Assembly: GCA_965372695.1 (NCBI GenBank) | Contig: CBDVDJ010000049.1 | Coordinates: forward strand, 1-10,212 | DNA length: 10,212 nucleotides | Source of the DNA: an uncultured bacterium | GTDB lineage: Bacteria > Krumholzibacteriota > Krumholzibacteriia > WVZY01 > JAKEHA01 | Reading direction: 5' to 3' | In this document: positions 257 to 9,558 of the stretch, in pieces | Layout of the letters: the number at the start of each line of letters is the position of its first letter | How positions within the stretch are numbered: position 1 is the first letter of the stretch | The notes under the pieces: generated by a model | Databases searched by the model: none | What the model saw: the letters and a program-made list of their open reading frames with translations, nothing else | Told to the model about the DNA's origin: nothing | Made by a program: the position numbers and the translations under genes

Positions 257-655
257 ATGCCTAGCTTCGTAATCACAGAGAAATGCGACGGGTGCAAGGC
301 GCTCGATAAGACGGCTTGCCAATACATCTGCCCGAATGACCTCATGGTCCTGGACAAGGACACGATGAAGGCTTTCAACCAGGATGTAGATATGTGCTGG
401 GAGTGCTATAGCTGCGTCAAGATTTGTCCGGTCCAGGCGATCGAGGTCCGTGGCTATGCTGATTTTGTGCCGATGGGCGCGAGCGTGACTCCGCTGCGGG
501 CAACCGACTCGATCATGTGGACCCTCAAGTTCCGAAACGGCATGCTGAAACGGTTCAAGTTCCCGATTCGCACTACCGAAGAGGGACAGGCGCAGCCATT
601 CGATCACTACCCGACGGGCGACGATGATCTCAAGAGCCAGACGCTCATGTGCTAG
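257..655 (+). CDS. aprB: Adenylylsulfate (APS) reductase beta subunit, 2x[4Fe-4S] ferredoxin-like
   Basis: The 132-aa ORF begins MPSFVITEKCDGCKALDKTACQYICPNDLMVLDKDTMKAFNQDVDMCWECYSCVKICPVQAIEVRGY, the characteristic AprB N-terminus with its Cys motifs. It continues with the MWTLKFRNG..RFKFPIRTT segment. A GGAGG Shine-Dalgarno at 247-251 lies 5 nt upstream of the ATG at 257. Confidence 0.95.
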   Translation: MPSFVITEKCDGCKALDKTACQYICPNDLMVLDKDTMKAFNQDVDMCWECYSCVKICPVQAIEVRGYADFVPMGASVTPLRATDSIMWTLKFRNGMLKRFKFPIRTTEEGQAQPFDHYPTGDDDLKSQTLMC

Positions 656-777
656 CCGGCTGGACTGAATACCGAAGTCGGCCCGGTCAAGATCGACAAG
701 ATCCTCACGCTCTAGTCGAGCGCAGGTTGTCTGACAACGAACCGATTCTTCGTCAACGAACCAAGGAGAAAGACGAA

Positions 778-2670
778 ATGGCGGAATTTGAAACTATAAC
801 GGTCGAAACAGACGTGCTGATTTGCGGCGGCGGCATGGCCGCCTGCGGCGCAGCGGTGGAAGCGTCTTATTGGGCCAAAAAGCAAGGATTGAAGGTCACA
901 TTGGTTGACAAGGCGGCAATGGACCGCTCGGGCGCCGTCGCGATGGGACTGTCGGCCATCAACCAGTATGTGGATCTGAACAGCGGTAACAACACTCTGA
1001 ACGACTACGCCGACTACGTCCGCAACGACCTCATGGGTATTACCCGCGAGGACCTGGTGGTCAGCATCGCGCGCCACGTAGACTCGTCGGTCCACTTGTT
1101 CGAGAAGTGGGGTCTGCCCATCTGGAAGGATCAGGAGGGCAAATACGTACACGAGGGTCGCTGGCAGCTGATGATCAACGGCGAGTCGTACAAGGTGATC
1201 GTGGCAGAAGCTGCCAAAACCGCGTTGGCAGAGGCAAATGGCGAATACTTCGAACGCGTATTCATCACTCATCCGCTGATGGACGGCGACACGTGTGTGG
1301 GCGCGATCGGCTTCAGCACGAGGGAGAACAAGATATACGTGTTCAAGGCCAAAGCCACGCTGGTTTCCATGGGTGGCGCGGTGCACGTGTTCAAGCCGCG
1401 GTCGACCGGTGAGGGCTTCGGCCGCTCCTGGTACCCGCCGTTCAACTCGGGCGCGAGCGCGTTCTTCACCATCTACGGCGGCGCCGAGATGACCTGCCAG
1501 GAAGTCCGGTTCATTCCTGTCCGCTTCAAGGACGCGTACGGACCCGTGGGCGCCTGGTTCCTGCTGTTCAAGTCGATCGCGACCAACGCGCAGGGCGGCA
1601 ACTACATGCAGGATAATGCCGCGGAGCTCGAAAAGTGGCTGCCTTACGGCAAGGTGAAGCCGCGTCCGGCCAACATTCGTAACTGGCTGATGATGCTGGA
1701 CGTGATGGAAGGCAAGAGCCCGATCTACATGCAGACGGCCGAAGCCATCCAGAGGATCTCCGACGCGGTGCCCGACGAGAAAGAGCGCAAGAAGAAGCTC
1801 AAGGAACTCGAGTCGGAGGCCTGGGAGGACTTTCTGGACATGACCATTTCGCAGGCCATCTTGTGGGCCGCGTCGAACGTCGAGCCCGAGAAACAGCCCT
1901 CCGAGATCATGGCGTGTGATCCTTACTTCATCGGTTCGCATTCCGGCGCGTCCGGCGCCTGGGTTTCGGGACCGGAGGATCTCCAGACATCCAATACCAA
2001 GGATGAATACTTCTGGGGCTACACGAACATGTGCACGGTCAAGGGCATGTTCGCCGCGGGCGACGCCTCGGGAGCCTCGAGCCACAAGTTCTCTTCCGGC
2101 TCGCACGCCGAGGGACGCATCGCTGCCAAGGCCATGGTCGCCTACGCCGTGGACAACAGCTCGCCGCCGAACGTGGACCAGGCCCAGATCGACGCGTTGA
2201 CCGCGGAGATCCTCAAGCCGCTCGAGACTTTCGAGAAGCACAAGGATGCGACGACCGACCCGAACATCAACCCGGAGTACATCCGACCCAAGCAGTTCAT
2301 GTACCGGCTGCAGAAGATCATGGATGAGTACGCCGGAGGTGTTTCGAGTCAGTTCAAGACGAGCGACAAACTCATCGAGAAGGGAATGGAGTTGTTGGCC
2401 TTCCTCAAGGAAGACTCGGCCAAAATCGGTGCGGAGAACCTGCACGAGCTCATGCGGGGCTGGGAGAACGTCCACCGCATGTACCAGGCGGATTCTCACA
2501 TGCGTTCCATCCTCTTCCGCGAGGAGACACGTTGGCCGGGCTACTACTTCCGGTCCGACAAACCGAGCATGGACAACGAGAACTGGCTCGCCTTCTGTAA
2601 CTGTACCTACGACAGGAACACTGGCGAGTGGGAGATGATCAAAAGGCCCGTTAAATACCTTACGCAGTAA
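778..2670 (+). CDS. aprA: Adenylylsulfate (APS) reductase alpha subunit, FAD flavoprotein
   Basis: The 630-aa product starts at ATG 778, in frame with track ORF 649..2670. AAGGAGA at 763-769 is a good RBS. The N-terminal FAD fold DVLICGGGMAACGAAVEAS is present, along with fumarate-reductase-family flavoprotein blocks (MGLSAINQYV, FAAGDASGASSHKFSSGSHAEGRIAAKA, RWPGYYFR). It immediately follows aprB. Confidence 0.95.
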   Translation: MAEFETITVETDVLICGGGMAACGAAVEASYWAKKQGLKVTLVDKAAMDRSGAVAMGLSAINQYVDLNSGNNTLNDYADYVRNDLMGITREDLVVSIARHVDSSVHLFEKWGLPIWKDQEGKYVHEGRWQLMINGESYKVIVAEAAKTALAEANGEYFERVFITHPLMDGDTCVGAIGFSTRENKIYVFKAKATLVSMGGAVHVFKPRSTGEGFGRSWYPPFNSGASAFFTIYGGAEMTCQEVRFIPVRFKDAYGPVGAWFLLFKSIATNAQGGNYMQDNAAELEKWLPYGKVKPRPANIRNWLMMLDVMEGKSPIYMQTAEAIQRISDAVPDEKERKKKLKELESEAWEDFLDMTISQAILWAASNVEPEKQPSEIMACDPYFIGSHSGASGAWVSGPEDLQTSNTKDEYFWGYTNMCTVKGMFAAGDASGASSHKFSSGSHAEGRIAAKAMVAYAVDNSSPPNVDQAQIDALTAEILKPLETFEKHKDATTDPNINPEYIRPKQFMYRLQKIMDEYAGGVSSQFKTSDKLIEKGMELLAFLKEDSAKIGAENLHELMRGWENVHRMYQADSHMRSILFREETRWPGYYFRSDKPSMDNENWLAFCNCTYDRNTGEWEMIKRPVKYLTQ

Positions 2671-2684
2671 GGGCCTGTGGGTTT

Positions 2685-2728
2685 GCGGGATCTTTGGGCG
2701 TCGCGTCGCGGCGTCCAGAGATCCCCGC
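2685..2728 (+). terminator. Imperfect GC-rich stem-loop 15 nt after the aprA stop; possible attenuating terminator or mRNA-stabilising hairpin
   Basis: The left arm GCGGGATCTTTGG (2685-2697) pairs with the right arm CCAGAGATCCCCGC (2715-2728), with one bulge and one mismatch, around a GC-rich loop. No clear U-tract follows, so it is not a textbook intrinsic terminator. Confidence 0.3.
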
Positions 2729-2852
2729 TCCCGACGCTTTGCAGTTATTCCCGTTCGAACGTCCGGATGTGTTACAGTACTGCGCGGCTGCGGCCGGGTG
2801 GTAACCGCTGTCAGGCCGGCACCTTGGGATTATTGATCTAGTGAGGAAACCG

Positions 2853-3137
2853 ATGGCAAAACACCCTGGAACCTGCACCCATTGTGGATCCCGTCTCGAG
2901 AAGTGGCGTGTTCCCGACGACGCTACCTGGGACGAGGAGTTTTTTTACGTCTGCTTCAACGATGATTGTTCCTACTACAAATCGGGGTGGGCCTGGATGA
3001 AGGAACGTTACAACCAGCGCGCTTCGTACCGGTATGCGGTCAACCCCGGTGCCGCCGTCTCACTGATGATACCGGTCTGGTCGGACTCCGCAACGCGGGA
3101 GATGATCGAGGAGCACACCGAAGGAGGCGAGGAATGA
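2853..3137 (+). CDS. Small four-Cys zinc-ribbon-like protein, aromatic-rich, function unknown
   Basis: Track ORF 2841..3137. I prefer ATG 2853 as the start because GAGGA at 2843-2847 lies 5 nt upstream. The 94-aa product has C8-x2-C11-x22-C34-x4-C39 (CTHC...CFNDDC), followed by a W/Y-rich segment (SYYKSGWAWMKERYNQRASYRY) and an acidic tail. Its TGA stop overlaps the next gene's ATG (ATGA at 3134-3137). Confidence 0.65.
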   Translation: MAKHPGTCTHCGSRLEKWRVPDDATWDEEFFYVCFNDDCSYYKSGWAWMKERYNQRASYRYAVNPGAAVSLMIPVWSDSATREMIEEHTEGGEE

Positions 3138-4021
3138 GCGACGACAAGGATCCCGCCCAGTCCAATGACCAGCTCGATAAGCTGAAGGAGAAGATAGTCA
3201 CGGATTATCCCCGGCTGGGCCCTGACGACAACTTCCAGTTCGGGTGTCATCCCGGCGTTTCGTGTTTCAACCAGTGCTGCGGCGACGTAAACATTTTCCT
3301 GTCTCCGTACGACGTGTTGCGCATGAAGAAACGTCTCGATATGACCTCGAGCGAGTTCCTCGAGAAGTATACATTTCTCCCTGTGCAAAAGGACATGAAG
3401 ACGCCCGTGGTTGTGTTGCGCTTGAACGACGACGAGGCCAAGACCTGTCAGTTCCTTACCGAGGGGGGGTGCGGCATCTATTCGGATCGGCCGTGGCCCT
3501 GCCGCATGTATCCCCTGGGACTGGCGGCTCAGAAGGACACGCCGGACGGCTGGCGCGGCGACCGGTTTTACTTCCTCATGGAAGAGGAGGGGTGCAAGGG
3601 GTTCAGCGAGCCCAGGGAGTGGACGGTCCGACAGTGGCTCGAAGATCAGGGGCTCGAGGAGTACGACGAGTGGGGAGAGGCATTCAAGGAATTGACGCTT
3701 CACAAATTCTTCGAGGACGGTGGCACCCTCTCACCGGAGAGGATGCACATGATGTACACCGCGTGCTACGATCTGGACAAGTTTCGGGAGTTCGTGTTCG
3801 AAAGCACGCTCCTGCAGAAATTCGTGGTGGATGAGGACTTCGTGGAAGAGATGCGCTATGACGACGAAGTATTGCTTCGTTTCGCGTTTCTGTGGCTGCG
3901 GTTCAGTCTTTTCGGCGAGAAGACTGTGCAAGTGAAAGCGGACGTCGTCGAGTCGTTCAAGGGAAAACGCGACAAGAAGGGATCGTTCGATCAGAAGTCG
4001 GCGGGGAATACTCCTGAATAA
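3134..4021 (+). CDS. Extended YkgJ/UPF0153-family (CxxCxxCC-type) cysteine-cluster protein, paralog 1
   Basis: The start is taken at ATG 3134, with AAGGAGG at 3121-3127 upstream. The longer track ORF from 2966 would overlap the zinc-ribbon gene. The 295-aa product has the N-terminal cluster CHPGVSCFNQCC, then KTCQFL..GGCGIYSDRPWPCRMYPLG, the typical family core, plus CKG. It has a roughly 150-aa C-terminal extension ending in the LWLRFSLFGEKT motif. Confidence 0.8.
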   Translation: MSDDKDPAQSNDQLDKLKEKIVTDYPRLGPDDNFQFGCHPGVSCFNQCCGDVNIFLSPYDVLRMKKRLDMTSSEFLEKYTFLPVQKDMKTPVVVLRLNDDEAKTCQFLTEGGCGIYSDRPWPCRMYPLGLAAQKDTPDGWRGDRFYFLMEEEGCKGFSEPREWTVRQWLEDQGLEEYDEWGEAFKELTLHKFFEDGGTLSPERMHMMYTACYDLDKFREFVFESTLLQKFVVDEDFVEEMRYDDEVLLRFAFLWLRFSLFGEKTVQVKADVVESFKGKRDKKGSFDQKSAGNTPE

Positions 4022-4091
4022 AATAGATGATGAGTGGACACGGGTCGACGGAACAAGATCAAGACAAGGGTGATCGGCGGCGCGATCAGGT

Positions 4092-4931
4092 ATGAGGGAA
4101 ATCGAACGGCTGAAGAAGGAGATCCTCGAGCACTACCCCAAGCTCAAAAAGGACGATTCGTATTCGTTCTCCTGCCATCCGGGCGTACCTTGCTTCAACG
4201 CATGTTGCGCGGACGTCAATATTTTCCTGACTCCATACGATATTCTCAGGTTGAAGAACAATCTCGGGATGAGTTCGGACGAATTTCTTTCCAGACATAC
4301 AGTATCCCCGTTCGACAAAAATTTGAAGTACCCGGCAGTTCAGCTGGCGATGAACGACGACGACGAGAAAACGTGTCCGTTCGTCGGCGAACGCGGCTGC
4401 GGGGTCTACGAGGACCGGCCCTGGGCGTGCCGGATGTATCCGCTGGGTATGGGGTCGCAGAAGGACTCCGGCACCGGCGCCGAAAGTGACTTCTATTTTC
4501 TGCTCGAGGAGGACGTGTGCAAGGGGCACGACGAAGACCACAAGCAGACGGTGGCACAGTGGCTGGAGACTCAGGGGATCGCCGAGTACGACAAGATGGG
4601 ATACTACTTCAAGGAACTGACTCTTCACGAGTATTTCCAGACCGGCGAGAATCTCACCGGCCAGAAGATCGAGATGTTCTTCACGGCGAGTTATGACCTG
4701 GACAAGTTCAGGAGCTTTTTGTTCGACACCACGTTTTTCGACAAGTTTGAAGTCGATGAAGAGACGCAGAAGAAAATCAAGTCCGACGACGTCGAACTGC
4801 TCAAATTCGGGTATTTCTGGTTGAGATTCTCTCTTTTCGGAGAGCGAACGTTGAAGGTCAAGGGAGACGTGCTCGAAGCGCGGCAGAAAAGGCTGGAAGG
4901 CAAGAAGAAGCTGGAACAGAAACAGAACTAG
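4092..4931 (+). CDS. Extended YkgJ/UPF0153-family (CxxCxxCC-type) cysteine-cluster protein, paralog 2
   Basis: This 279-aa ORF is collinear with paralog 1 along its whole length: CHPGVPCFNACC, KTCPFV..RGCGVYEDRPWACRMYPLG, CKG, and FWLRFSLFGERT. ATG 4092 is the first start after an in-frame TGA at 4071. The Shine-Dalgarno is weak. Confidence 0.8.
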   Translation: MREIERLKKEILEHYPKLKKDDSYSFSCHPGVPCFNACCADVNIFLTPYDILRLKNNLGMSSDEFLSRHTVSPFDKNLKYPAVQLAMNDDDEKTCPFVGERGCGVYEDRPWACRMYPLGMGSQKDSGTGAESDFYFLLEEDVCKGHDEDHKQTVAQWLETQGIAEYDKMGYYFKELTLHEYFQTGENLTGQKIEMFFTASYDLDKFRSFLFDTTFFDKFEVDEETQKKIKSDDVELLKFGYFWLRFSLFGERTLKVKGDVLEARQKRLEGKKKLEQKQN

Positions 4932-4957
4932 ACCGGGGCGATCGGTTGCCGCCGGTC
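4931..4957 (+). other. Intercistronic GC-rich stem-loop between paralog 2 and the membrane cytochrome b gene
   Basis: GACCGGGGC (4931-4939) pairs with GCCGCCGGTC (4948-4957), with one bulge, around the loop GATCGGTT. It starts at the last base of the TAG stop. No U-tract follows. Confidence 0.25.
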
Positions 4958-4988
4958 CGAATCACCACAACGCGATGCGAGGTTCCCT

Positions 4989-5918
4989 ATGAGTGGACTG
5001 CAGCTGCTGATGTACGGTGCCTATGCCGTTTTTTTCATAGGTACGGCGTACAGGGCCTACCGGATGGCGACGATGCCCATGCATCTCCGTTGGGATCTGT
5101 ATCCGATACCGCACGAAAAGGGCAAAGCGGATTACGGCGGTTCATACTACGAAGAAATCGACTGGTGGACAAAACCCGCGAAGGTGTCTGTTTCCAACGA
5201 GTTGAAGGAAATGGCCAGGGAAATCATCTTTATCCAGTCGATGTACCACAATAACCGGTCCCTCTGGATGTTTTCGTTCCCATTTCATTTTGGACTCTAT
5301 TTATCAATCGTATTCGTTCTGCTGGTTTTTCTGGGGGGACTGCTCACGCTGCTCGGAGTACCGGTGTCCGCCGAATCGGCCAATATCTTCGGGAAAGCCC
5401 TGCACTACATTACGATGCCGTTCGGAATCGTGGGCGCCGTTATGGGTGCGTTCGGCGCTCTGGGATTGTTTGTCAGCCGATTCGCCAGGGGCGAACTGCG
5501 AAGGACGTCGGTCTGGACCGATTACTTCAACCTGATTCTGCTCTTCGCCATCTTCGCCAGCGGTCTCGCCGTCTGGGCGACGGAAGACATTTCGTACTCC
5601 GCCTTGAGGGTGTTCATCACGGATTTGATCTCCTTCAAAGGCACGCCCGCTGTGTCTACGGGTTTTGCCGTCCACATGGCGCTGGCGGCTGCGTTCCTGA
5701 TCTACCTTCCCTTTACGCACATGACCCACTTTGTGGGCAAGTACTTCACCTACCACAAGGTGCGATGGGAAGACCAGCCCAACATCAGGGGCAGCAAACT
5801 CGAAAAGCGGATCAACGAGGCGCTTGGTTACCATATCGACTGGTCGGCTCCCCACATTAAAGAGGGAACGTGGGCCGAAGCGGCAACTGCAACCGAGGAG
5901 AAGACCGAAAGTGAGTAA
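4989..5918 (+). CDS. NarI/DsrM/HmeC-like integral membrane di-haem cytochrome b (nitrate reductase gamma-subunit family)
   Basis: The 309-aa product has about 5 hydrophobic helices: LLMYGAYAVFFIGTAY, LWMFSFPFHFGLYLSIVFVLLVFLGG, ITMPFGIVGAVMGAFGALGLFV, YFNLILLFAIFASGLAVWA and FAVHMALAAAFLIYLPF. The N-terminal YRxxRMxxMPMHLRWDLYPIPHE block and the C-terminal LPFTHMTHFVGKYF block are typical of DsrM/HmeC/NarI-like proteins. Candidate haem-ligand His residues sit in helices 2 and 5. GAGG at 4979-4982 is a plausible RBS. Confidence 0.8.
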   Translation: MSGLQLLMYGAYAVFFIGTAYRAYRMATMPMHLRWDLYPIPHEKGKADYGGSYYEEIDWWTKPAKVSVSNELKEMAREIIFIQSMYHNNRSLWMFSFPFHFGLYLSIVFVLLVFLGGLLTLLGVPVSAESANIFGKALHYITMPFGIVGAVMGAFGALGLFVSRFARGELRRTSVWTDYFNLILLFAIFASGLAVWATEDISYSALRVFITDLISFKGTPAVSTGFAVHMALAAAFLIYLPFTHMTHFVGKYFTYHKVRWEDQPNIRGSKLEKRINEALGYHIDWSAPHIKEGTWAEAATATEEKTESE

Positions 5919-7536
5919 TGACGACAACAACAAGAAAACGACGATAAAGGAGTTCTGCCGCCGGAAAGGGCAGATCGTCAAGCTCGACGTCTCCGAGTTT
6001 CCGCCTTTGCCGCCGCCGTACGACAAACTCGACCTCGAGCCCGGAATCAAGGAGCTCTCGGACGAGTTGAAGGAGAAGTACGAAACGGATCTGGACGGCG
6101 TTTCGGCGCTCAAACTCCCCCGTCCCGAGACGGAGGAAGAAAAGCGCGAGCTGGTCCAGAGTTTCCTGACGGGACTCAAAAAGACTTTCGAGCGGGAAAA
6201 CAACTGGGGATTCCTGCAGCCGTTGTTTCTGACGATCGAGTACTGCGCGAAGTGCCAGACGTGTTCCAGGGCATGCCCTATTTATAACGAATCGGGTCAC
6301 GAGGAGATTTATCGGCCGACGTTTCGCGCCGATATACTCCGGCGCCTGTACAAAAAGTACGTACGACCGGGGGGCAAGATCCTCTCGAAGATCTCGGGGG
6401 AGGACATCGACGCCAGCTGGACGATGATTGCCCGGCTGATGGAGCTGAGTTATCGCTGCACCGTTTGCCGCCGCTGCGCGCAGACGTGCCCGATCGGCGT
6501 TGACAACGGGCTGGTGACGCGTGAACTCCGCAAGATCTTCAGCCAGGAGATGGGAATCCAGGTCGAGCAGCTGCACAAGAAGGGTTCCGTCCAGCAGCTG
6601 AAGTCGGGGTCCAGTACGGGCATGACGCCGGTCGCGTTTCTCGACAACATCGAGTTCCTCGAGGAGGAAGTCGAGGAGCGGACGGGGATGGAGTTCAAGT
6701 GGCCGATGGACAAGTCGGGCGCCGACATTCTGCTCATCCACAACGCGGGCGAGTACCTGGCGTGGCCGGAAAACCCCGAGGCGTTTGCCATCATTCTCGA
6801 GGCGGCCGGTATCGACTATACCCTGTCCAGTGACCTGCTCGGATACGACAGCGTCAATTACGGGGTGTGGTATGACGACGTGCAGTTCGCAAAGGTGGCG
6901 CTCAAACACGTCGAGATCGCCAAGAAGCTCGGTGTCAGAAAGATCGTCCTCGGCGAATGCGGTCACGCGCACAAGGCTCTCACCGTGATCGCCGACCGCG
7001 TGTTCTCCGGAGATTATAATATTCCCCGGGAGAGCTCGCTGACACTTCTGCGCGATATCATAAAGGAAAAAAGGATCAAGGTCGATCCGGCTCGCAACGA
7101 CGACATCATCACGACGCTTCATGATCCGTGCAACCTCACGCGGCTGATGGGGATCGTGGAGCCGCAGCGCGAAGTGATCAAGGCGGTATGCAATAACTTC
7201 CGGGAGATGACGCCCCACGGCGTCCACAACTACTGCTGCGGAGGCGGAAGCGGGTTTGCGATAACCGCCAACACCAACTTCCCCGACTGGCGTACGAGCG
7301 TAGCCGCCCGCGTCAAGCTGCGCCAGATCCTGGACGTGTTCCAGGATGTCATCAAACCGGATCAGAAGAAGTACGTTTGTGCACCCTGCTCGAACTGCAA
7401 GGGAGCCATTCGCGACACACTGGCGGCCTACGGCGTGTACGAGAGATGTAACATCCTGTATGGCGGCCTGGTAGAACTCATCGTCAACGCGATGGTCGAC
7501 GTTCCCGAGGGATTTCTCGAGTGGGAATGGCACTAA
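5911..7536 (+). CDS. DsrK/HmeD/HdrD-like iron-sulfur protein (two ferredoxin-type [4Fe-4S] motifs plus a CCG cysteine-rich domain)
   Basis: Two CxxCxxCxxxCP motifs are present (CAKCQTCSRACP and CTVCRRCAQTCP). The C-terminal CCG domain reads HDPCNLTR...NYCCGGGSG...CAPCSNC. GECGHAHK is a degenerate N-terminal CCG-like segment, as in DsrK-type proteins. The start is assigned to GTG 5911, with GAGGAG at 5895-5900 upstream, giving 541 aa and an 8-nt overlap (GTGAGTAA) with the upstream gene. The track start at 5731 would overlap that gene by 188 nt. The exact start is uncertain. Confidence 0.85.
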   Translation: MSNDDNNKKTTIKEFCRRKGQIVKLDVSEFPPLPPPYDKLDLEPGIKELSDELKEKYETDLDGVSALKLPRPETEEEKRELVQSFLTGLKKTFERENNWGFLQPLFLTIEYCAKCQTCSRACPIYNESGHEEIYRPTFRADILRRLYKKYVRPGGKILSKISGEDIDASWTMIARLMELSYRCTVCRRCAQTCPIGVDNGLVTRELRKIFSQEMGIQVEQLHKKGSVQQLKSGSSTGMTPVAFLDNIEFLEEEVEERTGMEFKWPMDKSGADILLIHNAGEYLAWPENPEAFAIILEAAGIDYTLSSDLLGYDSVNYGVWYDDVQFAKVALKHVEIAKKLGVRKIVLGECGHAHKALTVIADRVFSGDYNIPRESSLTLLRDIIKEKRIKVDPARNDDIITTLHDPCNLTRLMGIVEPQREVIKAVCNNFREMTPHGVHNYCCGGGSGFAITANTNFPDWRTSVAARVKLRQILDVFQDVIKPDQKKYVCAPCSNCKGAIRDTLAAYGVYERCNILYGGLVELIVNAMVDVPEGFLEWEWH

Positions 7537-7555
7537 CCGCGCGGAGGGACCTATT

Positions 7556-7930
7556 GTGGCCAAGAAAATCCTGATTGTAGACGACGAAGCCGACGTCAGA
7601 ACTTATCTGGAAGTACTGTTCCAGGAAAACGGGTACGAAACCGCGGTAGCCGCCGACGGCGACGAGGCGATGCCGAAAGTTCATGAGTTCAAACCGGACC
7701 TGATCTCTCTCGACATCATCATGCCGCGCGAGAGCGGCCAGAAATTTTACCGCACGCTGGTAAAAGACGCGGAGTTCGGCAAAACACCCGTCATTATCTG
7801 CAGTGGTGTAACGCGCTACAAAGAGCTGTTCTCGCGCGACCACAAGACGATGCCCAAACCGTTTGCCTTCATCGAGAAACCGATCGACAAAGGCGAACTC
7901 CTGGGCAAAATCAAGGAAGCCATCGGGTAG
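7556..7930 (+). CDS. Single-domain CheY-like response regulator receiver (no output domain)
   Basis: This 124-aa product has a GTG start with GGAGGG at 7543-7548 upstream. All canonical receiver residues are present: DD (9-10) in KILIVDDE, the phospho-acceptor D53 in LISLDIIMP, S83 in IICSG, and K108 in FIEKP. It starts 19 nt after the DsrK-like stop. Confidence 0.9.
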   Translation: MAKKILIVDDEADVRTYLEVLFQENGYETAVAADGDEAMPKVHEFKPDLISLDIIMPRESGQKFYRTLVKDAEFGKTPVIICSGVTRYKELFSRDHKTMPKPFAFIEKPIDKGELLGKIKEAIG

Positions 7931-7964: not shown

Positions 7965-9113
7965 TCACGCTGCTTCCGGACCTTCGGCGGCGGCGGTTCC
8001 GGCGGCGGAGCCGGCGTCTGTCCCGGTATCCCCGGGCAGGTCGGCCGTCTTTGCGAGCGCCGTCAGGCCGCCCAGAACACCCAACCCCATCGATTCGACC
8101 GCTGATGACGGTACGATGATCATCGACCCCTTCTGCCGCAACCCCTCGTAGACCATGTTCATCGCGCGCAGGTGCAAAGCGACCGGATTGTCCTGGTAGT
8201 GGTAGGCGGCGGCGGCGAATTTTTCGGCGATCTCGGTCTCGGCGGTGCCGAGGATGATCCGGCTCTGGCGTTCGCGTTCCGCCTGCGCCTGTCGTGACAT
8301 CGCGTCTTCGAGGCCTTTGGGTATCACGATGTCGCGGATCTCGACGTCCTGGGTGGTGACACCCCACGCGTTGGTTTTTTTGTCGAGGAGCTTCTGGATC
8401 TCGGAGCCGAGACGGTCCCGTTCCGACAGCAGGGTGGCGAGGTCGTTTTTTCCGATCGCGTTACGCAGCGCCGTCTGCGCCGACAGGATGACGGCGTCCT
8501 CGAAATGCTCGACTTCGAGTACGGACTTCTGCGCGTCCCACACCATCCAGAACGCGATCGCGTCGACGCTGACCGGCACCGTGTCCGCCGTCAGCGTTGT
8601 CTCGGCGCTGAAGTCGGTGACGCGGATTCGCTGGTCTACGAACTGGGCGACTTTGTCGATGACGGGAATGACGGCGAAGAGCCCCGACGACCGTATCGCC
8701 TTGAATTTGCCAAATCGCAGCACGACGGCGCGTTCCCATTGATAAGCGATCTGCACAGACGTCGACACCAGTACTGCGACGGTGATGGTGACGAGTAACA
8801 CGTCGTCCAGCGGCCGCATGACGAGGTACGCGATGAAACAGTCCGCCGTGGCGAGCACGACGACGGCTTCCCATATCTGTGTGAGCCGTATCAAGCCCGC
8901 CAGGATAAGCGCCGATCCGAGAAACAACGCAACGGCGTCCGCGCTGAAGCCATGGAGGCGGAGGTGGACGATCAGGCCGGCGACGAACAGTGCCACCAGC
9001 AGCAGAACGTTCAGGGGTGCAAACCTGAAATCGGCCCTCATGGTGGCGGCAAAGCGTTCCAGTGAAATACCGGGTACCGATCGGCCTTCAGCCGTTTTTA
9101 CGGATCCAGTCAT
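7965..9113 (-). CDS. SPFH/band-7 (stomatin/prohibitin-like) protein with a polytopic N-terminal membrane region
   Basis: This 382-aa product has about four N-terminal hydrophobic helices. A canonical SPFH core follows: ERAVVLRFGKFKAIRSSGLFAVIPVIDKV..., DAIAFWMVWDAQKSV, ALRNAIGKNDLATLLSERD, VEIRDIVIPKGLEDAMSRQAQAERERQSRIILG, and a C-terminal Ala/Gly-rich tail. AAGGAG on the minus strand (9127-9122) lies 8 nt upstream of the ATG. Confidence 0.9.
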   Translation of the reverse strand: MTGSVKTAEGRSVPGISLERFAATMRADFRFAPLNVLLLVALFVAGLIVHLRLHGFSADAVALFLGSALILAGLIRLTQIWEAVVVLATADCFIAYLVMRPLDDVLLVTITVAVLVSTSVQIAYQWERAVVLRFGKFKAIRSSGLFAVIPVIDKVAQFVDQRIRVTDFSAETTLTADTVPVSVDAIAFWMVWDAQKSVLEVEHFEDAVILSAQTALRNAIGKNDLATLLSERDRLGSEIQKLLDKKTNAWGVTTQDVEIRDIVIPKGLEDAMSRQAQAERERQSRIILGTAETEIAEKFAAAAYHYQDNPVALHLRAMNMVYEGLRQKGSMIIVPSSAVESMGLGVLGGLTALAKTADLPGDTGTDAGSAAGTAAAEGPEAA

Positions 9114-9487
9114 GACGACGACTCCTTTCGTTGCCGCAGTCCTTCCAGCACATCGTCGAGCATGAGCCCGTAGCTGGAAGCGCGAGCCATTAGTTCGGTC
9201 AAAATCTGATCGAGCATTCTCTGTTTTTCCAGCCGGTCGATCTCCGGCTTGCGGCTGCCGATAAAAGTCCCCGAGCCCTGTTGTGTGTCGAGCGTTCCTT
9301 CGATTTCGAGTTCGCGGTACGCGCGCACCACTGTGTTCGGGTTGATCGCGAGTTCGACGGCGAGCTGGCGAACCGTCGGCAGGCGGTCTCCGGGGCCAAG
9401 CTCGCCGCTGGCAATGCCGAACTTGATCTGTTCGATAATCTGCCGGTAGAACGGCACGCCGCTCTTGTTATCCAGAATAAATCCCAT
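9110..9487 (-). CDS. GntR-family transcriptional regulator, YtrA-like subfamily (short effector/dimerisation domain)
   Basis: This 125-aa product has a winged-HTH block PFYRQIIEQIKFGIASGELGPGDRLPTVRQLAVELAINPNTVVRAYRELEIEGTLDTQQGSGTFI, followed by only about 50 aa, as in the YtrA subfamily. GGAG (9499-9496) lies 8 nt upstream of the ATG. Its stop overlaps the SPFH gene start (ATGA at 9113-9110). Confidence 0.9.
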   Translation of the reverse strand: MGFILDNKSGVPFYRQIIEQIKFGIASGELGPGDRLPTVRQLAVELAINPNTVVRAYRELEIEGTLDTQQGSGTFIGSRKPEIDRLEKQRMLDQILTELMARASSYGLMLDDVLEGLRQRKESSS

Positions 9488-9506: not shown

Positions 9507-9540
9507 GTACTATAAGACTAGTGTACTAGCATTATAGTAC
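9507..9540. promoter_or_regulatory. 34-nt near-perfect palindrome; candidate operator for the adjacent GntR/YtrA-like repressor
   Basis: The sequence is GTACTATAAGACTAGTGTACTAGCATTATAGTAC. The outer 9-nt arms GTACTATAA and TTATAGTAC are perfectly complementary, and 28 of 34 positions are symmetric. GTACTA/TAGTAC hexamers occur at 9507, 9523 and 9535. The element overlaps the -10 hexamer and the predicted transcription start. Confidence 0.6.
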
Positions 9541-9558
9541 AATATGAGAGTGTGTCAA
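9531..9558 (-). promoter_or_regulatory. Consensus sigma70-type promoter for the gntR-SPFH operon
   Basis: On the minus strand, TTGACA (9558-9553) is followed by a 16-nt spacer and TATAAT (9536-9531). Both hexamers match consensus exactly. The predicted start is about 35-40 nt upstream of the gntR ATG at 9487. Confidence 0.65.

Follow-up and report, generated by a model that had tools for sequence, protein, structure and literature searches.

The 10,212-bp contig CBDVDJ010000049.1 of an uncultured Krumholzibacteriota bacterium (assembly GCA_965372695.1) was analyzed over its whole length, and this entire stretch is hereafter called the window. All genes from position 257 to 7930 lie on the + strand. 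They encode the two subunits of adenosine 5'-phosphosulfate (APS) reductase (aprBA), a small Zn-ribbon protein (ZnF), two YkgJ/CxxCxxCC proteins, a two-subunit membrane module (M2, a cytochrome b, and K2, an iron-sulfur [Fe-S] protein) and a response regulator (RR), and along the order aprBA-ZnF-YkgJ-YkgJ-M2-K2-RR neighboring genes are separated by 57–170 bp gaps or overlap (Table 1). The M2-K2 module is the subject of this report. An initial reading made from the letters alone (the sequence-only reading) had described it as a DsrMK/HmeCD-type pair, composed of a NarI-like cytochrome b and a protein with two CxxCxxCxxxCP motifs plus a complete CCG signature, whose genes overlap by 8 nt; gene calls, the Pfam match of M2 (PF02665), and the motifs of K2 confirmed this description. 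The same reading proposed a substrate or partner among AprB and the three Cys-rich proteins encoded upstream, and this proposal was not supported. Our comparisons show that the pair is a newly found member of a widespread and already named paralogue family, DsrM2K2, and that its genomic position is specific to its lineage.

Table 1 Features of the 10,212-bp window (coordinates in window positions).
Feature	Position	Strand	Evidence
aprB (APS reductase beta)	257-655	+	TIGR02060, 206.6 bits (cut-off 135.65)
aprA (APS reductase alpha)	778-2670	+	TIGR02061, 866.6 bits (cut-off 641.75); ATG 778 taken as start
Small Zn-ribbon protein (Ogr/Delta-like)	2841-3137	+	PF04606, E 6e-7
YkgJ/CxxCxxCC protein, copy 1	3134-4021	+	PF03692
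YkgJ/CxxCxxCC protein, copy 2	4092-4931	+	PF03692
M2, DsrM2-type NarI-family cytochrome b, 309 aa	4989-5918	+	Pfam Nitrate_red_gam PF02665, E 1.6e-13
K2, DsrK2-type Fe-S/CCG subunit, 541 aa, GTG start	5911-7536	+	Pfam Fer4_8 and CCG
Single-domain response regulator (receiver only), 124 aa	7556-7930	+	PF00072 Response_reg, E 3e-20
SPFH protein	7965-9113	-	
GntR regulator	9110-9487	-	

The iron-sulfur and cytochrome b subunits

The best start of the K2 gene is the GTG at 5911, with GAGGAG in front of it, and the overlap with the cytochrome b stop (5911-5918) recurs at the same length in independent gene calls of four orthologous loci (L001-L004; fetched loci carry L numbers throughout). K2 contains two ferredoxin motifs (C112xxCxxCxxxCP and C183xxCxxCxxxCP) and a C-terminal CCG domain (C407-x34-C442C443G, with CCG at 442-444, and C490xxC493xxC496), which is the arrangement of two ferredoxin motifs plus C-Xn-CCG-Xm-CxxC used to define DsrK. 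The cysteines C112-C122, C183-C193, C407, C442, C443, C493, and C496 are 100% conserved in 85 K2 orthologues, so that the CCG cysteines, on whose conservation the sequence-only reading had staked its idea, are retained without exception. C490 is an extra, clade-specific cysteine kept in 96% of these orthologues. Because C493/C496 is the pair that is invariant across the family, the spacer from G444 to C493 spans 48 residues, compared to 36 in canonical DsrK (i.e., a 12-residue insertion in K2). The sequence-only reading had counted 46 residues, having measured from C443 to C490, and had taken the long spacer as the mark of a distinct subfamily; the count requires correction, and the subfamily was recovered in the tree described below. 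No hydrophobic segment or signal was found in K2, in line with the cytoplasmic location suggested earlier. An AlphaFold2 model of K2 (predicted local distance difference test [pLDDT] 78, predicted template modeling score [pTM] 0.81) was closest in Foldseek to EtfD of M. smegmatis (9ojn, E 2e-9), followed by HdrB (8rvu_B, probability 1.0). Neither sequence nor fold search matched a DsrK structure in the PDB copy used, the sequence search returning EtfD alone, and weakly.

Five transmembrane (TM) helices were predicted in the window cytochrome b. The concentration of basic residues in loops 1 and 3 and in the C-terminal tail (positive-inside count) indicates the NarI topology, N-out/C-in, and the Pfam match, hhalign, and hydropathy likewise support a NarI-type five-helix fold. 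M2 scored 40.4 bits with the NCBIfam DsrM model (NF038037), below its cut-off of 300, and hhalign of the window-family M2 against canonical DsrM returned a probability of 99.6%. Four histidines, two in TM2 and two in TM5, are invariant in canonical DsrM (14/14 sequences); we take them to correspond to the heme ligands of E. coli NarI, His56/His205 for the proximal and His66/His187 for the distal heme. The proximal (cytoplasm-side) pair is retained in 75 M2 orthologues (H100 in 100%, H247 in 99%). The distal (periplasm-side) pair is complete in six of the 75 and incomplete in 69: 25 orthologues keep the distal TM5 histidine alone, among them the window protein (H229), and 44 have neither. The window M2 has H100, H229, and H247 and lacks the second TM2 histidine, and therefore does not present the four ligands expected for two b hemes. 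Since distal ligands are lost in most M2 proteins, and in part in that of the window, quinol turnover is probably located on the cytoplasmic side and not electrogenic. Other features of the M2 family are a conserved insertion of ~20 residues in the cytoplasmic TM1-TM2 loop and conserved cytoplasmic histidines (H32, H42, H256, and H289). In the literature searched, we found no earlier report of the loss of distal heme ligands in these cytochromes b, nor of the 12-residue CCG insertion with its extra conserved cysteine.

Family placement and coexistence with canonical DsrMKJOP

Among curated models, DsrK (NCBIfam NF045796) matched K2 best (335.6 bits, E 3.9e-100), with about twice the scores of HmcF (187.9 bits, cut-off 750) and TmcB (183.4 bits, cut-off 735), although all three scores lie below the respective cut-offs (400 bits for DsrK). 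The QmoC model (NF038018) gave 19.6 bits (cut-off 300), and the window encodes two separate polypeptides rather than a fused protein of the QmoC type. Identity of K2 to canonical DsrK is 26-28%. A neighbor-joining (NJ) tree, the kind of placement suggested by the sequence-only reading, put the window K2 inside a long-spacer clade defined by the 12-residue insertion (bootstrap 92/100), separate from the clade of canonical DsrK (100/100). With 55-66% identity to pairs adjacent to dsrC, and standing apart from canonical DsrK, the window protein is a member of the DsrM2K2 clade.

Close K2 homologues (63-88% identical) occur in Zixibacteria, Latescibacterota, and other metagenome genomes of the FCB (Fibrobacterota-Chlorobiota-Bacteroidota) group. 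A scan of species-representative genomes identified relatives of K2 in at least 587 species genomes. The best 80 of these relatives (55-82% identical) are distributed among Zixibacteria, Gemmatimonadota, Ignavibacteria/Kapabacteria, Acidobacteriota, and Syntrophaceae/Smithellaceae/Desulfomonile, and also span Chloroflexota, Bacillota, Archaeoglobaceae, and Ca. Methanodesulfokora. Given this distribution and the E-value of the DsrK match, the module is not a chance match. Pairs named dsrM2/dsrK2 (or dsrM-2/dsrK-2) have been described in peatland Acidobacteria, Ca. Desulfosporosinus infrequens, and Ca. Thermonerobacter thiotrophicus (bioRxiv 10.1101/197269; PMC6372793; PMC6338057), and Hausmann et al. 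considered them not uncommon among sulfate reducers (bioRxiv 10.1101/197269; PMC6372793). These three papers give the name alone, with no properties or function. We infer that the published genes and the window family are the same because their taxa and gene order agree, rather than by way of the published sequences. We also considered, but do not claim, that the family equals the 'basal DsrMK-only clade' described by Neukirchen et al. 2023. In the cases that could be compared, M2K2 is absent as DsrM/DsrK from the DiSCo table of that study, namely for Ignavibacteria RIFOXYC2_FULL_35_21, the Thermonerobacter metagenome-assembled genomes, and Ca. Methanodesulfokora MDKW. In the latter, the DsrMK listed by DiSCo adjoins dsrAB and the M2K2 copy is on a different contig.

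The window pair represents an additional copy and is distinct from the canonical DsrMK. Canonical DsrK is expected to be encoded with dsrJOP (usually also dsrT) beside dsrC/dsrAB, and none of dsrAB, dsrC, or dsrJOP is present in the window, as already noted in the sequence-only reading, or within ~10 kb in two near-identical contigs. These contigs have a gene order identical to that of the window, with 92-100% identity over all shared genes in L167 and 74-96% in L166, and extend it upstream with sirohaem biosynthesis genes, a divergent qmoC, and sat; their qmoC product is 75-82% identical to QmoC of L003 (409.7 bits, cut-off 300). The complete Zixibacteria genome OY760907.1 holds an apr-linked pair with a K2 that is 79% identical to that of the window (L008: TauE, qmoC on the opposite strand, then sat-aprBA-ZnF-YkgJ-[MerR-like open reading frame, ORF]-M2-K2-RR). 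In the same genome, a canonical cluster at 440-462 kb (L168: qmoA-qmoB-dsrA-dsrB-dsrD-dsrN-dsrL-dsrC-dsrT-dsrM-dsrK-dsrJ-dsrO-dsrP) ends ~14 kb before L008. Of its products, DsrM (519.3 bits), DsrK (727.4), DsrJ (164), and DsrO (305) score above their cut-offs, compared to 336.8 bits on the DsrK model for the apr-linked K2 copy. Zixibacteria SURF_9 carries M2K2 on a separate contig (L059), and Neukirchen et al. tabulate a full dsr/qmo set, including dsrMKJOP, for this genome (PMC10504309 supplement). Canonical DsrMK and M2K2 also share one contig in L005, L028, and L071.

Coexistence with canonical DsrMK(JOP), including the bona fide dsrMK beside dsrAB/dsrC that the sequence-only reading had proposed to look for, is thus shown for relatives only, since the window, a complete contig of 10.2 kb, gives no view of the rest of its genome. 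For the same reason, the pair could be taken for the organism's sole, divergent DsrMK, with the remaining dsr genes lying just off the contig. We regard this as highly improbable, because the near-identical contigs contain no dsr gene within ~10 kb on either side, OY760907.1 combines the same arrangement with canonical DsrM, DsrK, DsrJ, DsrO, and DsrP beside dsrC, and SURF_9 has both the published dsrMKJOP and M2K2.

Genomic neighborhood of the pair

To describe the gene neighborhood, fetched loci were annotated by BLASTP against reference proteins from the window, L003, and L005. We compared 86 loci with orthologues 55-100% identical, and counts of upstream neighbors use the 69 loci that extend 2 kb or more upstream. 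dsrC or dsrAB lies within 10 kb in 32/86 M2K2 loci, and dsrC is the commonest identified immediate upstream neighbor of M2 (17/69), ahead of the response regulator (9), YkgJ (5, all in the window's subclade), and divergently transcribed sat (2). Sixteen of the 18 DsrC-family genes adjacent to M2K2 encode the CysB-x10-CysA arm with both catalytic cysteines. For example, in L005 the order dsrA-dsrB-dsrD-dsrN-dsrL-dsrC is followed by an M2K2 pair (63% and 46% identical), a response regulator, and canonical dsrM-dsrK (DsrK 516 bits), and L055 has the order YkgJ-qmoC-dsrABDNLC-M2K2. The dsrM-2/dsrK-2 genes of Ca. Thermonerobacter thiotrophicus occupy the same layout as in L005/L055, with an upstream operon sat-aprBA-hyp-hyp-qmoC (PMC6338057). 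What follows the canonical dsrMK of L005 (14572-16936) is not dsrJOP but a gene for a 123-aa protein and then a bc-type module of a Rieske protein and a split cytochrome b. In L091, a K2 of 72% identity is followed after ~640 bp by a - strand gene (4194-4484) for two tandem DsrC/TusE-like domains without the C-terminal CysA, and similar truncated DsrC-like genes adjoin M2K2 in L026, L068, and L084.

The three Cys-rich genes between aprA and M2 in the window go with aprBA, not with M2K2. This was determined by a scan for YkgJ in metagenome contigs, in which relatives at least 50% identical were retained (80 loci, L086-L165). The Zn-ribbon gene is directly upstream of the YkgJ gene in 62/63 loci, and aprA is directly upstream of this pair in 39 of 44 informative loci, mostly without M2K2; qmoC is often the next gene. 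M2K2 follows the Zn-ribbon/YkgJ pair only in the window's subclade (L086, L088, and L092), and among the orthologue loci a YkgJ gene is found near M2K2 only in that subclade and in L055. The YkgJ protein has eight invariant cysteines and forms a conserved pair with the Zn-ribbon protein downstream of aprBA across many lineages. The sole mention of this pair that we found in the literature is as 'two conserved hypothetical genes' (PMC6338057), and based on the synteny counts, the published 'hyp-hyp' genes are most likely the Zn-ribbon/YkgJ pair. Judged from this gene order, both proteins look like uncharacterized accessory proteins of the dissimilatory APS reductase.

Two tandem YkgJ genes are present in the window, compared to one in its relatives (L003, L127, L124, L131, and L154). 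Copy 1 is closest to the type found in aprBA-ZnF-YkgJ-qmoC-sat-dsrC loci, and copy 2 to the single copy of the nearest Zixibacteria-type relatives (77% identical to L003, compared to 54% for copy 1). AprA, the Zn-ribbon protein, and YkgJ copy 1 of the window are 88%, 69%, and 74% identical to their L127-type counterparts (aprBA-ZnF-YkgJ-qmoC-sat-dsrC) and 75%, 45%, and 54% identical to those of L003, whereas identity to L003 reaches 77-88% for YkgJ copy 2, M2, K2, and the response regulator. This pattern suggests that recombination or transfer exchanged the aprA-ZnF-YkgJ block, with the resident YkgJ gene remaining in place.

The juxtaposition of M2K2 and apr takes several forms. In the window, L002, L003, and L008, the pair and apr are co-directional; L014 and L031 have the pair divergent from sat-aprBA; in L156 and L159, aprBA directly follows the pair; and in L091 the two are convergent. 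In L008, a MerR-like ORF (8010-9066) is located between YkgJ and M2K2, so that the pair may have its own regulation there. In L001 (complete Latescibacterota genome CP070631.1), an ORF at 7306-7736 covers no more of AprA than its last 130 residues (61% identical), with unrelated genes and a RuvX fragment upstream; aprBA is therefore truncated in this genome, and ZnF-YkgJ-M2-K2-RR is intact.

Such arrangements could point to M2K2 as a membrane electron module for APS reductase, acting on AprB directly or through the Zn-ribbon/YkgJ proteins, whether as an auxiliary or alternative to QmoABC or as a link between the branches of Apr and Dsr. Consistent with this are the tightly spaced, same-strand order aprBA-ZnF-YkgJ-M2-K2-RR in the window, L002, L003, L008, L166, and L167, the three further independent juxtapositions (L014/L031, L156/L159, and L091), and the block that stayed together in L001 despite the truncated aprA. 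We nevertheless consider this role quite unlikely. QmoC, plus qmoAB in L168, is encoded in the same lineage; the Zn-ribbon/YkgJ pair follows aprA in the large majority of informative loci, usually without M2K2; no orthologue locus beyond the window's subclade and L055 has a YkgJ gene near M2K2; and dsrC is the commonest identified neighbor. In addition, Ca. Methanodesulfokora MDKW, a carrier of the M2K2 family, has neither Apr nor Sat entered in the published table. To our knowledge, AprB has no disulfide chemistry. A replacement of Qmo by M2K2 as the membrane anchor of Apr was rejected, given that L003, L166, and L167 encode QmoC upstream of sat in divergent orientation and that OY760907.1 has qmoAB beside dsrAB. 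The partnership with AprB or its Cys-rich neighbors envisaged in the sequence-only reading is weakened by the same observations.

The window order is most simply read as the supercluster sat-aprBA-ZnF-YkgJ-qmoC-dsrABDNLC-dsrM2K2-RR from which qmoC-dsrABDNLC would have moved away. Because relatives of the pair are usually located by dsrC, the apr adjacency is a lineage-specific rearrangement, not a sign of a new substrate, and it is no evidence of functional coupling to APS reductase. A scan for promoters and terminators between apr and the M2K2 pair yielded nothing informative. Exact-sequence look-ups with AprB and the GntR regulator of the window gave no hit.

The response regulator gene starts 19 bp 3' of the K2 gene. 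Its product scored 119 bits against the NCBIfam DVU0259 family (cut-off 160), a family named for a gene that we take to lie near the tmc operon of Desulfovibrio, which encodes another NarI-plus-CCG module. A response regulator is immediately downstream of K2 in 25/86 loci, in addition to the 9/69 in which it precedes M2, and receiver-only DVU0259/DivK-like regulators co-occur with the pair in many phyla (e.g., L005, 11640-12050). Judged by eye, the window protein has apparently kept the acidic pocket, the phospho-acceptor Asp, and the conserved Lys. The frequent co-encoding of a single-domain response regulator was not reported earlier in the literature searched. Downstream, on the opposite strand, a perfect (12/12) sigma-70 consensus (TTGACA, 16-nt spacer, TATAAT; 9531-9558, - strand) is located just upstream of the GntR-SPFH gene pair.

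Possible function and comparison with known systems

We consider it reasonably likely that M2K2 is a paralogous quinol:DsrC(-trisulfide) oxidoreductase, with DsrC as its substrate. Support for this substrate is indirect and comes from dsrC as the immediate upstream neighbor of M2 in 17/69 loci; the family identity draws on DsrK as the best model, the homology to DsrM, and the HdrB/EtfD-like fold. M2 would exchange electrons with the menaquinone pool, and electrons would travel over one b heme and then two [4Fe-4S] clusters before reaching the CCG-domain cluster in the cytoplasmic K2, where trisulfide or disulfide DsrC would be reduced (or DsrC oxidized in reverse). In the window's organism, the DsrC partner would be encoded elsewhere in the genome. 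As a one-heme, non-electrogenic module, M2K2 would be functionally unlike the canonical two-heme DsrM(KJOP); we hold this energetic aspect with less confidence than the assignment of DsrC as substrate.

An unlikely alternative is that M2K2 is an HdrD/EtfD-like quinone-linked oxidoreductase that uses another substrate, such as a low-molecular-weight di- or polysulfide, another DsrC/TusE-like protein, or a soluble redox protein, and is merely co-regulated with sulfur metabolism. The closest structure, EtfD, is an electron transfer flavoprotein (ETF):menaquinone oxidoreductase and not a disulfide reductase, the 12-residue insertion and the extra conserved cysteine beside the CxxC set K2 apart from DsrK, the DsrC-like neighbors in L026, L084, L068, and L091 have no C-terminal Cys, and M2K2 coexists with complete DsrMKJOP. 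However, 16 of the 18 adjacent DsrC-family genes encode the two-cysteine DsrC, DsrK is clearly the top curated model, and no gene for an alternative substrate was recurrently linked in the examined loci.

Several points weigh against DsrC as the substrate of a one-heme module. Upstream of M2, the neighbor in 34/69 loci is outside the reference protein set, and within the window's own subclade M2K2 is never adjacent to dsrC. The apr juxtaposition exists in at least four arrangements, more than one accident would give. Canonical DsrMKJOP is already available for DsrC in the same genomes, and the role of M2K2 could therefore differ. CCG domains, as the match to EtfD as the closest solved structure illustrates, occur as well in enzymes whose substrates are not disulfides. 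M2 probably carries one b heme, a number drawn from the loss of ligands, and the family as a whole is known from sequences.

A more speculative possibility, which we consider rather doubtful, is that M2K2 forms a distinct single-heme, non-electrogenic quinone:thiol oxidoreductase with a cytoplasm-facing quinone site, controlled by the co-encoded receiver. Such an enzyme might allow carriers of DsrMKJOP/DsrL/DsrD to switch the direction or energy coupling of DsrC cycling, or might couple the redox state of DsrC to Apr/Qmo. If this single-heme reading were true, the repeated independent juxtaposition with apr would be meaningful.

The electron route to DsrC and its energy conservation in sulfate reducers are debated (PMC3949148). 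A second DsrMK-type module is present in many recently discovered sulfur-cycling phyla, including Zixibacteria, Acidobacteriota, Ignavibacteria, Gemmatimonadota, Chloroflexota, and some archaea. If it has one heme and is non-electrogenic, models of energy yield and marker-gene annotation for its carriers would need adjusting. The apr adjacency in the window should not be read as a new partner of APS reductase, because the truly apr-linked uncharacterized genes are those of the Zn-ribbon/YkgJ pair.

Compared to known systems, the window pair is most similar to the published dsrM2/dsrK2, which likewise form a two-gene unit of a NarI-like cytochrome b and an Fe-S/CCG protein. The dsrM2/dsrK2-like orthologues (55-66%) in Acidobacteriota, Ignavibacteria/Kapabacteria, and Bacillota are located after dsrC or upstream of dsrAB, as published, and these dsrC/dsrAB-linked orthologues share the 12-residue CCG insertion with the window K2; in contrast, the window pair follows aprBA-ZnF-YkgJ. 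The DsrMK core of DsrMKJOP (HmeCD of Archaeoglobus) has homologous subunits, with two ferredoxin clusters and one catalytic CCG domain, a NarI-type membrane subunit that anchors the cytoplasmic K, and a genetic link to dsrC in many genomes. The window pair differs from it in scoring below both curated cut-offs and in having no adjacent dsrJOP or dsrT, and in the family M2 differs from DsrM by the mostly lost distal heme ligands and the TM1-TM2 loop insertion, and K2 from DsrK by the 12-residue insertion and the extra Cys.

QmoC of QmoABC is the known membrane partner of AprBA, and resembles the window pair in that it joins an HdrC/HdrE-like Fe-S function to that of a NarI-like cytochrome b and is encoded near aprBA. 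It is, however, one fused protein without a CCG domain, and is encoded separately upstream of sat in the near-identical contigs. HdrDE, TmcBC, HmcEF, and the mycobacterial EtfD share architecture and fold with the window pair. Unlike TmcBC/HmcEF, the pair has no associated multiheme cytochrome c genes and scores far below the respective cut-offs, and whereas EtfD is a single fused polypeptide, the window pair is encoded by two genes.

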